From Patescibacteria group bacterium (GTDB lineage: Bacteria; Patescibacteriota; Minisyncoccia; CAIUEV01; JAHKAQ01), in contig JAYEHH010000037.1 in assembly GCA_034716235.1 (NCBI GenBank), positions 566 to 64,565 of the forward strand: a stretch of DNA of 64,000 nt. The letters run 5' to 3'. Under the pieces are notes generated by a model that made no database searches, had not been told where the DNA came from, and saw only the letters and a list, made by a program, of their open reading frames with translations. Within the stretch, counting starts at the first letter, position 1; each line of letters opens with the position of its first letter. A program made the translations under genes and the position numbers. Shown one piece after another: positions 17,445-22,218 of this stretch.

Positions 17445-17514
17445 TGACAGGCAGGTGCCAAGGATAACAAAAGAATAGATTTCTTAATTGAAAATTATTA
17501 TAATGTTTTTAAAA

Positions 17515-17548
17515 CGTACCGGGATTCCCGCTTTCGCGGGAATGACAG
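17515..17548. repeat. Module A repeat core, inverted copy, right flank of GIY-YIG; contains the ATG of the downstream gene
   Basis: cgtaccgggattcccgctttcgcgggaatgacag is the reverse complement of the 17066-17093 core; its terminal gaATGACAG supplies the start codon at 17542. Confidence 0.8.
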
Positions 17549-19812
17549 CAAATTTAACAACCTTCTTAACCTTCATAACTCTCACCCTCTTTTTCTTTCT
17601 CTTCCCTTTCTCCGTCAGAGCAACGGCGATTGATATTACGGAAAATACAACTTGGAATGAAGATCAAGTAGTGGAGGATAGGGTTATTGTCATGGGAGGA
17701 GCAACTTTAACCATTGAACCGGGAGTCCAAATTAAATTTAAGCCAGGAGGTAATTTAAGAATCTATGGAGATTTAATAGTGGAAGGAGAAAAGAATCAAC
17801 CGGTAATTTTCTTTAGAGAAAAACCTAAGCCAGAGGAAGAAAGGTGGATGTATTATTTAACCTTTGGAGCCGATTCTAATTCTGTCATCAAACATGCAAT
17901 CATTAAAGAGGCTGGTGGTTATTCTGACTCAGGCTCTCGAATGCCGGGAATGAAAATTAGGGGTAATTTAGAAATTTACGACAGTTTAATCACTCAAAAT
18001 TATTGGGCATTAGAAGTGAGAGACGATGGGCATTTAAAAATGAGAAATTCTGATATTTATGATAATCATACAACTTGGGGCGTAGAAGTATTGGGTCATT
18101 CTGCCGCCGCCGATATTGTTGATAATTATTGGGGAGATAATTCAGGCCCCTTTCATTCTTCTTTTAATAAATTGGCTACAGGAGAAAGAATCAATGGAGG
18201 CAATCTTGAATTTACACCCTGGGAAACAAGAGGTAAGAAGCCAATCATTCTAATCCCTGGATTTGGAGAATCTTTAAATTTCGGAAAGTTTTTTCAGAAT
18301 CAAGTAGGGAGATGGTGGCTTTTCCCGCCTACCAAATCAACCTCAGCCTTAAAAACTTTGCTAGAGGATGCTGGCTATGAAGATGAAGTAGATTTATTTG
18401 TTGGTTTTTATGACTGGCGGAAATCAATTCATCAAAATGCGACGGATTATTTAAAGCCAATTATAAATTTGGCTAAAGAAAAATCTGGTTTTAAAGAGGT
18501 GGACATTGTTGCTTTTAGTTTCGGTGGGCTTGTTTCCAGAAGCTATGTCCAAGGGAATTCTTTTGGGTTTGATGTAAATAATTTAATAACTTTAGGGACT
18601 CCCCATCAAGGAATTTCAAAAATTTACACTTTTGCAGCAGGCGGTCAGTTGCCAGCTGGCTGGAACCCCTTACTTTACATTTATCTCTGGTATGAACAAA
18701 TAGAGGAAGGTCAATCTGCCTTGGGTTATATCCAAAATTATTTACCATCCGTTTATGAGATAATGCCCACCTATGATTTCTTAAAAATGTCAGGGAGCTT
18801 GATTAATCATCAAGAAATGTCTATCACCAATAATATTTTGCAAGAGTTAAATAATGGAATTGGAGATTTACAAAATAGGGTAGATGCATTCTTTGTCGGA
18901 GGGACCGATCAACTAACCTTAGACAATATTCCAGTAAGACCACATCTACCAAACGATGGAGCATTTTGGCTGGACGGAGCTCCTGACCCAGCAAGACCAG
19001 TACCCAACAGTACTGAAGGAGATGCGACGGTCCTTACCAAAAGTGCTATTTGGGGAGTAGAAGATATTAAAAGCACTTTAATCCAGAGCCAGCATGAAGA
19101 TTTACCGTTAGAAGCAAAAACAGAAATTGAGAATATTTTAGACATTGATTTAGGAGAAACAAACTTTGATTTTAATTATTCGGAGGATTATCTTATTTTT
19201 TGCTTAGCTTCTCCTTTGGAAGTGGAAATCGTGGATCAGGCAGGGCATAGGCTTTCTCGGGAAATAAATGAAATTGAAAATGCTTATTTTTATGAAGAAG
19301 ATCCGTTGGGAAAAAAAATAATTTTAATTTATAATCCGGATACTGAATATTCAATGGAGGTTTCCGGGTTGGCGAACAGTGATTATAGAATTTTAGCAAT
19401 GTCAGCTGATGCTAATAGTGAAATAGTTTCTGCTGAAATTTCTGCAGAGATTGCTCTAGGAGAAAATGTTGAATATTGGGCAAGAAGAGTGGTGACTGAT
19501 ACCGAGGGAAATGAGCAGGGGGATGCGAATGAGTTAAAAATTGAAATTTATGAGAAAATCGTAGCTGACTATAAAGTGCTTGTTGGTCGAGTAAAAGATT
19601 TTTATAAAACTGGATTTTTGAAAAGTTGGGAGGTCAGACAGGAACTTTTAGAAAGAATACTGGCTAGCTATAATTTTTCAAAGAGAGATCAATTAGAAGA
19701 AGAGGGATTAATGATTGAAGATATAAAAGCAAAGGTTATTGAACTAGAAGTAAATGAGCTACTTGATTCCTCGAGTTCCCAATTGTTACTAGATGCCCTA
19801 GATGAGTTCTAA
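17542..19812 (+). CDS. Secreted protein: N-terminal signal peptide, right-handed parallel beta-helix repeats, LCAT/PGAP1-like alpha/beta-hydrolase (phospholipase/lipase) domain
   Basis: Signal peptide MTANLTTFLTFITLTLFFFLFPFSVRA; beta-helix-like repeats (NSDIYDNHTTWGVEV...); hallmark FYDWRKS and AFSFGG (A-x-S-x-G-G nucleophile elbow). Start reassigned from the TTG at 17488 to the ATG at 17542. Confidence 0.6.
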   Translation: MTANLTTFLTFITLTLFFFLFPFSVRATAIDITENTTWNEDQVVEDRVIVMGGATLTIEPGVQIKFKPGGNLRIYGDLIVEGEKNQPVIFFREKPKPEEERWMYYLTFGADSNSVIKHAIIKEAGGYSDSGSRMPGMKIRGNLEIYDSLITQNYWALEVRDDGHLKMRNSDIYDNHTTWGVEVLGHSAAADIVDNYWGDNSGPFHSSFNKLATGERINGGNLEFTPWETRGKKPIILIPGFGESLNFGKFFQNQVGRWWLFPPTKSTSALKTLLEDAGYEDEVDLFVGFYDWRKSIHQNATDYLKPIINLAKEKSGFKEVDIVAFSFGGLVSRSYVQGNSFGFDVNNLITLGTPHQGISKIYTFAAGGQLPAGWNPLLYIYLWYEQIEEGQSALGYIQNYLPSVYEIMPTYDFLKMSGSLINHQEMSITNNILQELNNGIGDLQNRVDAFFVGGTDQLTLDNIPVRPHLPNDGAFWLDGAPDPARPVPNSTEGDATVLTKSAIWGVEDIKSTLIQSQHEDLPLEAKTEIENILDIDLGETNFDFNYSEDYLIFCLASPLEVEIVDQAGHRLSREINEIENAYFYEEDPLGKKIILIYNPDTEYSMEVSGLANSDYRILAMSADANSEIVSAEISAEIALGENVEYWARRVVTDTEGNEQGDANELKIEIYEKIVADYKVLVGRVKDFYKTGFLKSWEVRQELLERILASYNFSKRDQLEEEGLMIEDIKAKVIELEVNELLDSSSSQLLLDALDEF

Positions 19813-19945
19813 ATTCAAGAATTTAGAACTCTTTTTATAAAAGTGATTTTTTATAAAAAATAGGTTACAATGTAAATATAATTTAACATAGTAGAAGTAG
19901 GGATATTCAAATAAACATTCATGGTCTTAAAAACCATTAAAGATT

Positions 19946-20161
19946 ATGCAAAAACCATATTACGAAAAACCAAATTTTAAATTATATAAAACAGATAGTT
20001 TAGAGTTTCTAGCACAATTACCAGAAAATTCTATTGATATGATTTTTGCCGATCCTCCCTATTTTCTTTCAAGTGGAAGTTTCACCTGCCACAATGGAAA
20101 AATGGTAAATGTAAAAAAGGGAGATTTTATAATTTTTCGACAAAAGAAACCATGCAATTAA
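19946..20161 (+). pseudogene. N-terminal 71-aa fragment of a DpnA/beta-class N6-adenine (GATC) DNA methyltransferase; truncated, displaced by the downstream gene
   Basis: MQKPYYEKPNFKLYKTDSLEFLAQLPENSIDMIFADPPYFLSSG...VNVKKGDF matches the N-terminus and DPPY motif IV of DpnA-like MTases. The reading frame ends after 71 aa and overlaps the start of the next ORF. Confidence 0.65.
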
Positions 20162-20919
20162 TTTTGAATACAGATTTAGCTACTCAATACAAAAGTCAAT
20201 CTCAGAAAGTTAGAGTTTTGACTGAAAATTGGGTAAAAAATGAGATTTTTTGTCCGAATTGTGGGAATATTATTTCTAAATATCCAAACAATAAGCCAGT
20301 TGGAGATTTCTATTGTTCTGATTGTTTAGAAGATTATGAATTAAAAAGTAAAAAAGATTCAATTGGTAATAAAATTGTTGATGGAGCTTATAAAACAATG
20401 ATTGAAAGATTACAAAGCTCTACAAATCCAAATTTTTTCTTTTTAAACTATAATTTGCATACTTACGAAGTTGTAAATTTTGTTGTTATTCCAAAACATT
20501 TTTTTATTCCAGAAATAATTGAAAAAAGGAGACCCTTATCAGAGAATGCTCGTCGTGCTGGCTGGGTTGGTTGTAGTATTTTATTACAAAGTATTCCTGA
20601 AAGTGGAAAGATTTTCTACATTAAAAATCAACGAAAACAAAAAAAAGAAAAAGTTTTAAAAAATTGGCAAAAGACTTTATTTTTAAGACAACCTCAAGAA
20701 ATAGAATTAAAAGGCTGGATTTTAGATATTATGAAGTGCATTGATAAATTAGGGAAAAAGAAATTTTCGCTCGAAGAAATGTATTCATTTGAGAAAATCT
20801 TATCAGAAAAATATCCTGAGAATAATCATATTAAGGATAAAATAAGACAACAACTCCAGTTTTTAAGAGATGAAGGTTATTTAGATTTTTTATCTCGTGG
20901 TATTTATCGTTTAAAATAA
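20152..20919 (+). CDS. DpnI-like methylation-dependent (G-m6A-TC) type IIM restriction endonuclease: PD-(D/E)XK catalytic domain plus C-terminal winged helix
   Basis: 255 aa. From my memory of the S. pneumoniae DpnI sequence, the blocks match closely: YKSQSQKVRVLTENWV, FCPNCGN, DFYCSDC, ELKSKK, DGAYKTM, NPNFFFLNY, RRAGWVGC, GLFLR, NNHIKDKIRQQLQFLRD. Length is also the same. Confidence 0.75.
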   Translation: MQLILNTDLATQYKSQSQKVRVLTENWVKNEIFCPNCGNIISKYPNNKPVGDFYCSDCLEDYELKSKKDSIGNKIVDGAYKTMIERLQSSTNPNFFFLNYNLHTYEVVNFVVIPKHFFIPEIIEKRRPLSENARRAGWVGCSILLQSIPESGKIFYIKNQRKQKKEKVLKNWQKTLFLRQPQEIELKGWILDIMKCIDKLGKKKFSLEEMYSFEKILSEKYPENNHIKDKIRQQLQFLRDEGYLDFLSRGIYRLK

Positions 20920-20922
20920 AAA

Positions 20923-22218
20923 ATGGAAAAAGAAAAGTTAGCTAAAAAGAAAAAGAAGAAGACTATGTCTTTGTCTTTCCCGAATGATTTTTTTTGGGGA
21001 AGTTCTACTTCGTCTTATCAAGTAGAGGGTGGGAATGTAAATGACTGGAGCCAATGGGAAAAGAAAAATGCTAAAAAATTAGCTCATTCGGCAAAAAGTT
21101 ATTGGAAACCTTGGCAAATAAAAAAATTTCCCCAAATACTTTCTCCAGATAATTATATTTGCGATAAAGCTTGTGATCACTATCATCGCTACGAAGAGGA
21201 CTTTGATTGGATTAAATCCTTACATCAAAATGCCCATCGTCTTTCTATAGAGTGGTCACGAATAGAACCAGCAGAAGGAAGATTTGATAAAAAAGAACTC
21301 CAGCATTATAGGAAAGTGCTAGAGGCTTTAAGGGCGAGAGGAATTGAACCTTTTGTAACTTTGAAACATTATACTAATCCAATCTGGCTTTCTGAAAAGG
21401 GAGGAATAGCGAGCCCAGCTTATCCGCGTTTATTTTCTCGTTATGTTCAAAAAGTGGTTCAAGAATTGGGCGATCTTTGCCAATATTGGATTACGGTGAA
21501 TGAACCGATGGTGATTATTCATAATGCCCATCTAACAAATAATTCTTGGCCCGGAGAAAAAAGCCTTATAAAAGCTCATAAATATTTTACTGCAACGGTT
21601 AAAGCTCACAATATGGCTTATGATTGCATTAAGCAAAAATTTCCCCAGGCTCAGATTGGTGTCGCCAAGCTTTTAAATTCTTGGGAACCGGTCAATAAAA
21701 AATCTTTCCTAGATATGTTAACCGTTAGATTAGCTCGTTATTTTAGCAATGAAAAATTTATCAACGCGATAAAATCTAAATTAGATTTTATAGGAGTAAA
21801 TTATTATTTTCATGATCAATTAAAATTTCCGTATCAACGTGTAACTACAAAAACGAAAGTTTCTGATTTGAATTGGGAAATTTATCCCAAGGGTATCTAT
21901 AAAGTATTGCAGGAAATTAAAAAATATAATCTTCCAATTTATATTACGGAAAATGGCTTAGCGGATGCGAGTGATAAATATAGAGCAGATTTTATTAAGG
22001 AACATCTGTTTTGGATAAATAAAGCCATTCAAGAAAAAATTCCAGTTAAAGGATATTTTCATTGGTCCCTTATGGATAATTTTGAGTGGAATAAAGGTTT
22101 TTGGCCTCGTTTTGGTCTTCTAGAAATAGATTATCACACGCTGACAAGAAAACTTCGTCCTAGTGGTAAAATTTACGCTGAAATTTGTGCTACTAATAAG
22201 CTTAAATTTGATAAATGA
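20923..22218 (+). CDS. Glycoside hydrolase family 1 (beta-glucosidase/beta-galactosidase)
   Basis: FPNDFFWGSSTSSYQVEGG N-terminal signature; TVNEP (acid/base) and YITENG (nucleophile) motifs. Confidence 0.9.
   Translation: MEKEKLAKKKKKKTMSLSFPNDFFWGSSTSSYQVEGGNVNDWSQWEKKNAKKLAHSAKSYWKPWQIKKFPQILSPDNYICDKACDHYHRYEEDFDWIKSLHQNAHRLSIEWSRIEPAEGRFDKKELQHYRKVLEALRARGIEPFVTLKHYTNPIWLSEKGGIASPAYPRLFSRYVQKVVQELGDLCQYWITVNEPMVIIHNAHLTNNSWPGEKSLIKAHKYFTATVKAHNMAYDCIKQKFPQAQIGVAKLLNSWEPVNKKSFLDMLTVRLARYFSNEKFINAIKSKLDFIGVNYYFHDQLKFPYQRVTTKTKVSDLNWEIYPKGIYKVLQEIKKYNLPIYITENGLADASDKYRADFIKEHLFWINKAIQEKIPVKGYFHWSLMDNFEWNKGFWPRFGLLEIDYHTLTRKLRPSGKIYAEICATNKLKFDK

Follow-up and report, generated by a model that had tools for sequence, protein, structure and literature searches.

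One of the DpnI-type systems described so far is that of pneumococcus, where DpnI and DpnII cassettes alternate at one site between conserved flanks, and which also provides the dpnM-dpnA-dpnB gene layout (PMC3812788). In Neisseria, the DpnI-family gene drg ("dam-replacing gene") interrupts and truncates dam in some meningococcal strains; a DpnIIB-like gene comes after it in some gonococcal ones, and the GC content of the drg locus is below that of the host (PMC4269198). Here we consider a comparable arrangement in a 64,000-nucleotide (nt) stretch, hereafter the window, of contig JAYEHH010000037.1 from a metagenome-assembled genome (MAG) of Patescibacteria. Two open reading frames (ORFs) on the same strand, 19946-20161 and 20152-20919, are preceded there by a lipase-like gene and followed by a GH1 glycosidase gene. 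The first-pass annotation, made without database searches, took them for a DpnI-like methyl-directed endonuclease fused behind a truncated DpnA-like methylase and, hence, for a replacement of a dpnII cassette by dpnI. We argue that the two ORFs belong to a horizontally acquired 984-nt block, comprising a 12-nt leader, a 61-codon methylase remnant and an intact DpnI gene, that was placed in the spacer between the lipase-like gene and GH1; we put the probability of this reading at about 80%.

The key evidence comes from the homologous site in sister genomes. The neighbours of the two ORFs were sought in the first 170 fetched loci, where no shared synteny was found; sister loci were reached through homologues of the GH1 gene, the closest of which (83%, 78% and 69% identity) are located on contigs with the gene order of the window, namely ribosomal proteins, an aminotransferase, a C39 peptidase on the opposite strand, the lipase-like gene and GH1, followed by an EamA transporter, a cellulase-like gene, a ROK kinase, a protein of ~770 amino acids (aa) and a PMT_2 protein. 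Thirteen syntenic genes match those of the sisters (L173 and L175-L178, on three contigs) at 59-85% identity. In the sisters, the lipase-like gene leads to GH1 across 130-135 nt, and nothing resembling a methylase, a nuclease, DpnI or the 63-aa ORF that is described below is present at the site. The intact dpnII-like cassette that the first-pass annotation had proposed to look for at this position in sister genomes is, accordingly, not there: the spacer is empty.

The boundaries of the insert can be placed by the same comparison. When 984 nt are taken out of the window, the remaining sequence, ...CTTAAAAATAAAAAATGG, shows 15/15 identity to the sisters' TAAAAATAAAAAATG directly before the GH1 start; that is, deletion of the insert together with one of the two TTAAAA copies between which it lies recreates the sequence of the sisters. 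The insert (approximately 19934-20916) starts 12 nt before the ATG of the remnant and runs through the final sense codon of DpnI. Its GC content of 27.2% is below that of all 1222 other segments of the same size in the window (mean 36.1%, minimum 30.3%). There are no terminal inverted repeats at its ends and no nuclease-gene remnant between 20917 and 20922. Since insert and DpnI ORF share their right end and no nuclease remnant follows, the methylase scar would have travelled with DpnI as one 984-nt block. Taken together, the empty sister sites, the exact restoration, the repeat and the low GC content point to a scarred unit that arrived ready-made, with the swap itself having happened in the donor. 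The features of the locus are listed in Table 1.

Table 1. Features of the insert and its surroundings, in window coordinates
Feature	Position	Strand	Basis or remark
Lipase-like gene	17488-19812		Upstream neighbour of the two same-strand ORFs
Terminator-like hairpin at the end of the lipase-like gene (host DNA)	19804..19831	+	Perfect 13-nt inverted repeat, then T run
Host intergenic DNA 5' of the insert, with TATAAT at 19877-19882	19832..19927	+	MAFFT alignment with the L173 and L175 spacers; poorly conserved
Left copy of the TTAAAA direct repeat, 6 bp	19928..19933	.	Read from the sequence
12-nt leader CCATTAAAGATT, apparently brought in with the methylase fragment	19934..19945	+	Missing from sister loci; inside the low-GC insert
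Methylase remnant proper, codons 1-61; DpnA-type, beta-class N6-methyladenine (m6A), motif IV (DPPY)	19946..20128	+	82% identity to L012
Junction tail of the remnant ORF: 10 non-homologous codons and TAA	20129..20161	+	Homology stops at codon 61
DpnI-family PD-(D/E)XK catalytic domain, aa 1-180	20152..20691	+	Pfam PF06044, 4esj alignment, invariant columns
DpnI C-terminal winged-helix domain, aa 186-253	20707..20910	+	Pfam PF17726, alignment to 4esj
Right TTAAAA copy, within the last DpnI codons	20911..20916	.	Read from the sequence
DpnI stop codon TAA	20917-20919		Already sequence common to the sister genomes
Host GH1 glycosidase gene	20923..22218	+	Pfam Glyco_hydro_1, 1.7e-83; sister orthologues 69-83% identity

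The second of the two ORFs is intact and encodes a full-length protein of 255 aa. It matches the Pfam families DpnI (PF06044; 1.4e-82, residues 1-180, profile positions 1-182 of 183) and DpnI_C (PF17726; 3.7e-32, residues 186-253, profile positions 2-69 of 70), aligns end to end with R.DpnI in the PDB (4esj/4kyw; E 1.7e-81, residues 1-253), matches the PADLOC profile mREase_II, "type II methyl-directed restriction enzyme" (1.4e-121, positions 1-254 of 256), and is 48.8% identical to pneumococcal DpnI over 254 aa. In DpnI, the catalytic residues are E25, D53, E64 and K66, and the zinc site is formed by two CXXC motifs (PMC3424567, PMC4117772); also defined are Q18, the methyl-binding cleft with L129, R135, W138 and G140, and the winged-helix residues K229 and R231 (PMC4117772, PMC3424567). 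The window protein keeps the catalytic set as E25, D52, E63 and K65 (4esj alignment and invariant columns) and the four zinc cysteines as C34-x2-C37 and C55-x2-C58; Q18 and the methyl pocket L129, R135, W138 and G140 are identical in the 4esj alignment and invariant among the relatives, and K230 and R232 are the counterparts of the DpnI winged-helix pair. Hence, the family assignment made in the first-pass annotation is borne out, and the catalytic and winged-helix methyl-recognition residues that it proposed to check are conserved: the ORF encodes a bona fide DpnI-family protein in which every functionally defined residue is retained. The DpnI genes of the same clade are under strong purifying selection, as judged from the ratio of nonsynonymous to synonymous divergence (dN/dS) of 0.04-0.12. 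Exact-sequence look-ups with this protein and with the 71-aa product of the upstream ORF returned no record.

Within that upstream ORF, residues 1-61 match the N-terminus and the DPPY motif of the beta-class N6A/N4C methylases (NCBIfam CcrM, 6.4e-7; in the PDB, M.PvuII at 2e-4 and CcrM at 5e-4) and are 82% identical to the N-terminal 61 residues of the full-length 270-aa methylase of locus L012 (tblastn, E 3e-29). The characteristic N-terminal sequence of the family, DMIFADPPYFLSSGSF, from the motif IV region, is present. The last 10 codons (IIFRQKKPCN) form a junction tail unrelated to the methylase, so that the earlier reading of all 71 residues as a DpnA-like N-terminus with DPPY stands for the first 61 of them and fails for the tail. 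Neither the target-recognition region nor the S-adenosylmethionine (AdoMet)-binding motif I (FxGxG) is encoded in any frame of the window. Because nothing beyond methylase residue 61 is found in any frame, the ORF is a gene remnant that arose by truncation, not by frameshift, and is not a methylase; a frameshifted but complete methylase gene was considered and is ruled out, as the C-terminal methylase sequence is missing from all frames. By sequence, then, the 71-aa ORF amounts to the dead beginning of a DpnA-type methylase gene.

DpnI is read in a different frame, from an ATG (20152) placed 10 nt ahead of the point where the stop codon of the remnant (20159-20161) ends. The nuclease gene thus does start inside the remnant ORF, as had been noticed in the first pass, but the two genes overlap and are not fused. 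Expression of the pair as a frameshift fusion was also considered and is ruled out: the overlap has no slippery sequence, and its geometry varies between loci (+4, +10, +17, +41 nt, or a gap). At the other end of the remnant, the first 23-34 nt of the methylase gene (ATGCAAAAACCATATTACGAAAAACC...) show 96-100% DNA identity across very different lineages, the loci concerned being the window (19946-19979), L023, L030, L103, L120, L132 and L159; in L159, just a 28-nt piece of the methylase start is left, 17 nt upstream of DpnI. This shared DNA may reflect the codon bias of AT-rich genomes or a conserved initiation region.

To which methylase family did the remnant belong? The GTDB was scanned, with one genome per species and the 61-aa fragment as query, and 80 loci were returned, most of which encode an intact methylase of 253-287 aa. 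The gene directly downstream is MutH/Sau3AI-like (Pfam MutH) in 17 loci, a DpnII-family nuclease (Pfam 9e-90) in 11, a DUF6996/6997 protein (matching PADLOC REase_II) in 6, and a small PD-(D/E)XK protein of 175 aa in 11. Three loci, L048 and L083 (Bacilli) and L065 (Staphylococcaceae), contain a triad of a D12 Dam methylase, this methylase and a DpnII-family nuclease, which, by gene content and order, corresponds to the dpnMAB layout. Since the intact relatives adjoin GATC nucleases or sit in dpnMAB-like triads, the assignment of the remnant family to GATC is sound; the specificity is deduced from partner genes and pertains to the intact relatives only. A protein search with the Bacilli methylase of L048, aimed at a named DpnA, yielded no informative names. 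Wherever the methylase is truncated in the GTDB set, the next gene is either DpnI (L009, L026, L061) or a 251-aa HARE-HTH nuclease-like protein (L001-L008, L016, L075), to which we return below. A separate case is L084:4875-5669, where a fusion of a PLD nuclease with a DpnI_C winged helix directly follows an apparently intact DpnA-type methylase; the same self-restriction puzzle has been raised for PLD-winged-helix (PLD-wH) enzymes beside amino-methylases (PMC11037411).

The history of such scars can be followed in a broader set of DpnI loci. A metagenome scan with the DpnI alignment retrieved 80 close relatives with 63-72% identity, and their flanks were searched with profile hidden Markov models for the intact methylase and four nuclease families; both flanks were available for 63 loci. 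A methylase 5' remnant and a nuclease 3' remnant are both present in 15 of the 63, a methylase remnant alone, as in the window, in 7, and a nuclease remnant alone in 8. By family, the nuclease remnants are MutH-like (13), DUF6996/6997 (5), small PD-(D/E)XK (4) and DpnII (1), and these families are unrelated to one another. The methylase remnant is always N-terminal and ends anywhere from about residue 34 to 190, with clusters near 66, 75 and 147. These patterns indicate that DpnI repeatedly replaced the middle of GATC methylase-nuclease operons. The conversion of a dpnII into a dpnI cassette that the first-pass annotation had envisaged is therefore retained as the origin of the scar, given the related loci with both scars, and is given up for the locus at hand, where the sister site is empty.

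Comparison of closely related loci suggests, in addition, that DpnI moves relative to its scars. L103 and L115 form a pair with 98% identity between their DpnI genes and a synonymous divergence (dS) of 0.08; their methylase remnants have a dS of 0.75 and different break points. A sliding comparison of the two loci shows 95-100% identity from the DpnI ATG to ~230 nt beyond its stop, 70-90% identity over both remnants and a random level outside; two other pairs behave similarly. Across the remnant-bearing loci, the stop of the remnant ORF overlaps the DpnI ATG in 22 of 28 cases. This overlap, along with the high-identity block that begins right at the DpnI ATG, suggests that the DpnI segment has no start signals of its own and relies on those of the gene it truncates.

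Some loci fit less simply. In L169 (3001-4574), DpnI is followed ~270 nt further on by an apparently full-length 175-aa PD-(D/E)XK nuclease, and there is no methylase remnant upstream of DpnI; either this nuclease has no activity or its context is misleading as to what it is. On two IMG/VR viral contigs (L171:2074-3768 and L172:2084-3780), DpnI homologues with 53% identity are located behind an intact methylase of 305-307 aa, which has a DHPW motif and a C-terminal FAGSG motif and the stop of which, in L172, overlaps the DpnI start. The pairing of an intact methylase with DpnI points to a specificity different from GATC or to a pair under regulation.

One competitor of horizontal acquisition as a unit is replacement in situ, whereby the lineage would once have held an intact GATC restriction-modification (R-M) operon between the lipase-like gene and GH1, most of which was then replaced by DpnI. 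The arrangement is exactly what such a swap would leave, the related loci with both scars show that swaps occur, and the Neisseria drg gene truncates dam in place (PMC4269198). The three independent sister contigs, however, have the empty 130-135-nt spacer, the right boundary of the insert is the end of the DpnI ORF, beyond which the host sequence resumes at 15/15 identity, and the in situ course of events would require that a later deletion removed the nuclease remnant and stopped precisely where the operon had once been inserted. We therefore consider it improbable that the swap took place here. The other question is whether the 71-aa ORF is dead at all, or has been kept as a functional small protein or leader, such as a regulator of DpnI or an obligatory coupling ORF. 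The best protein matches of the fragment are short (53-124 aa, 59-84% identity), the remnant ORFs reach or pass the DpnI ATG in the 22 of 28 loci mentioned above, the pairwise dN/dS of the remnants is 0.04-0.46, mostly below 0.25, and the 5' end is always the part that is kept. A conserved mini-protein, to which the all-short list of matches would point, was nevertheless rejected, since that list is partly a ranking artefact and the GTDB scan returned mostly full-length genes. Furthermore, the length of the remnant varies from 0 to ~190 residues, and just over half of the DpnI loci have none. The nuclease 3' remnants, which have no start, are as well preserved as the methylase stubs (62-93% identity), so that the preservation of the stubs speaks for youth and not for function. 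The low dN/dS is expected if divergence predates truncation and fits a divergence that was built up while the genes were intact methylases, and in the pair L103/L115 the dS of the remnants is far above that of DpnI. A retained function of the 71-aa ORF thus has a low probability.

Two further alternatives concern the enzyme and the assembly. The DpnI homologue could be inactive or could have drifted to another specificity, in which case no restriction of methylated GATC would take place; 48.8% identity to the characterised enzyme leaves room for such a change. The ORF, however, is intact and full-length, all catalytic, zinc, methyl-pocket and winged-helix residues are conserved, and the selection on DpnI in the clade is strong, all of which makes loss or change of activity distinctly improbable. 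As the source is a MAG and the GC content of the block is an outlier, the block might also be a chimeric join; the same host spacer, though, resumes at the very nucleotide where it was left, and synteny continues over many genes on both sides, so that an assembly artefact is extremely improbable.

Several observations nevertheless weigh against parts of the account favoured here. Of the 63 related DpnI loci, 33, slightly more than half, have neither remnant at a detectable level, so that DpnI can do without one. The flanking repeat, with its 6 bp and AT-rich sequence, could have arisen by chance. A two-step history, in which an R-M operon was inserted exactly here and was then overwritten and trimmed flush, may also have produced the present arrangement. 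A sequence taken to be that of DpnA is 65% identical to the methylase of L048, 53% to that of L012 and 49% to the fragment, a comparison to which little weight should be given. No canonical two-hexamer sigma-70 promoter was found in 19832-19945. Among 58 ORFs in the window that are 110 aa or longer, no more than 8 have a Shine-Dalgarno-like motif in the 20 nt before the start, and translation initiation in this organism seems to be largely independent of Shine-Dalgarno pairing; because the motif is so rare here, its absence before DpnI is uninformative on translational coupling. Finally, no Dam or second DpnA-type gene was found in a tblastn search (best E 0.17) limited to the 64 kb of the window.

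With these points in mind, the acquisition of the block as one piece can be envisaged as follows. In the donor, the DpnI gene would have replaced the middle of a GATC R-M operon, overwriting the methylase gene in its 3' part and the nuclease gene in its 5' part, and the scarred unit would later have been copied as one piece into the present genome. The block has no evident promoter of its own, and its transcripts probably start in the host spacer that once belonged to GH1; transcription probably runs on from the insert into GH1, which now starts 3 nt past the DpnI stop, so that the genes would be co-transcribed. We infer a promoter role for the spacer 19832-19927, the counterpart of which precedes GH1 in the sister genomes and the TATAAT of which aligns with one in L173; the region 19832-19945 shows no homology to regions upstream of other methylase genes. 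The 71-codon remnant ORF would be translated, with the ribosomes stopping 10 nt inside the DpnI ORF, and the translation of DpnI is, therefore, probably coupled to that of the remnant. The enzyme should cut fully methylated G(m6A)TC, destroying incoming DNA from GATC-methylating hosts or phages, and would spare the organism's own, presumably unmethylated, GATC sites, of which the window contains 125, at an unremarkable observed/expected ratio of 0.74. It is reasonable to infer from the sequence that the organism restricts Dam-methylated DNA, as had been proposed in the first pass. Over the same 64 kb, the palindromes ACGT and TCGA each occur at 0.49 of the expectation from a Markov model and GGCC at 0.58, perhaps a sign that sites other than GATC are, or were, under restriction pressure.

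The comparison of DpnI loci brought up two more genes. A conserved 63-aa ORF (MEIQLLPFFAKLILRLNPFNR...YPEFQLW) directly follows DpnI in 24 of 77 loci and is also found directly after the unrelated HARE-HTH nuclease (examples are L103:1376-1564, L115:3739-3927, L167:3774-3962, L004:6005-6196 and L016:4970-5158); it is missing from the intact methylase-nuclease loci and from the window, and has no match in Pfam or NCBIfam. It appears to accompany the invading cassettes. The HARE-HTH nuclease itself, a protein of 251 aa (L004:5248-6003, also L001-L008, L016:4225-4968 and L075:4272-4721), has a weak N-terminal match to Pfam HARE-HTH (E 0.0016, short of the curated cutoff), and its C-terminus is nuclease-like (a precomputed Pfam tag NmeDI_C and a weak match to PADLOC REase_II); NCBIfam and the PDB gave nothing. 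In L001-L007, a 76-residue methylase stub precedes it, and the C-terminal half of a MutH-like nuclease follows (L004:6184-6549). It thus occupies the same scaffold as DpnI and, in our sample, is found behind truncated methylases only, which suggests that it is a second nuclease family incompatible with GATC methylation.

These observations invite a more far-reaching hypothesis, namely that the methylase 5' stub and, where there is one, the nuclease 3' stub are the working arms of a promoterless DpnI cassette, the former providing it with start signals for transcription and translation captured from the victim operon, and the stubs with homology for recombination, so that DpnI, and likewise the HARE-HTH nuclease with the 63-aa ORF, would recur into GATC R-M operons across Patescibacteria, DPANN archaea and other lineages as selfish "anti-methylases" homing to the very operon that makes their target. 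We regard this hypothesis as speculative and rather unlikely to hold.

As regards the significance of the locus, the finding leads one to expect, for this genome, a defence by which DNA coming from GATC-methylating neighbours or phages is destroyed. R-M systems for GATC with the same methylase family are present in many Patescibacteria and other uncultivated lineages, and, accordingly, the complementary DpnI/DpnII population logic may operate there too. In the comparison set, GATC operons with four unrelated nucleases have repeatedly been overwritten by DpnI, and the scarred unit, it seems, can re-insert elsewhere. It follows that a truncated methylase gene beside a methyl-directed nuclease is no proof of a swap in that very genome. 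Our knowledge of how DpnI-type enzymes work is unchanged by the finding, the interest of which lies mainly in the comparative pattern across DpnI loci to which the window led.

Compared with the systems described previously, the window enzyme has the same two-domain architecture as R.DpnI of S. pneumoniae (type IIM) and nearly the same length (255 vs 254 aa), but its host is a Patescibacteria MAG and no dpnD-like second gene follows it; in contrast to the pneumococcal site, where one cassette alternates with the other, the sisters of the window have nothing there. The family of the methylase fragment fills the dpnA position in the Bacilli-type loci (PMC3812788), as does DpnA (M2.DpnII) in dpnMAB, whereas in the window only motif IV survives, and most of the intact enzymes of the candidate phyla radiation (CPR) type are the only methylase in a system of two genes rather than an accessory enzyme for single strands. 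The winged-helix fusion nucleases (PD-(D/E)XK-wH and PLD-wH; PMC11037411) share with the window protein the DpnI-type winged-helix reader of G(m6A)TC, but the latter is of the classical DpnI type that cuts inside its site, not one of the newer distal cutters. No account of the methylase-scar/DpnI pattern in CPR bacteria was found in the literature, within an incomplete search library. A close parallel is the Neisseria drg locus, where, as in the window, a lower-GC DpnI-family gene abuts a truncated GATC methylase gene. There, however, an alpha-class Dam was broken in place at its native locus, whereas the stub in the window is of the beta-class DpnA type and would have been imported with DpnI into a site that, in the sister genomes, holds no methylase. 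With these differences, the feature described here is a further and fairly ordinary case of the turnover of defence genes that is known from Neisseria drg and from pneumococcal DpnI/DpnII.

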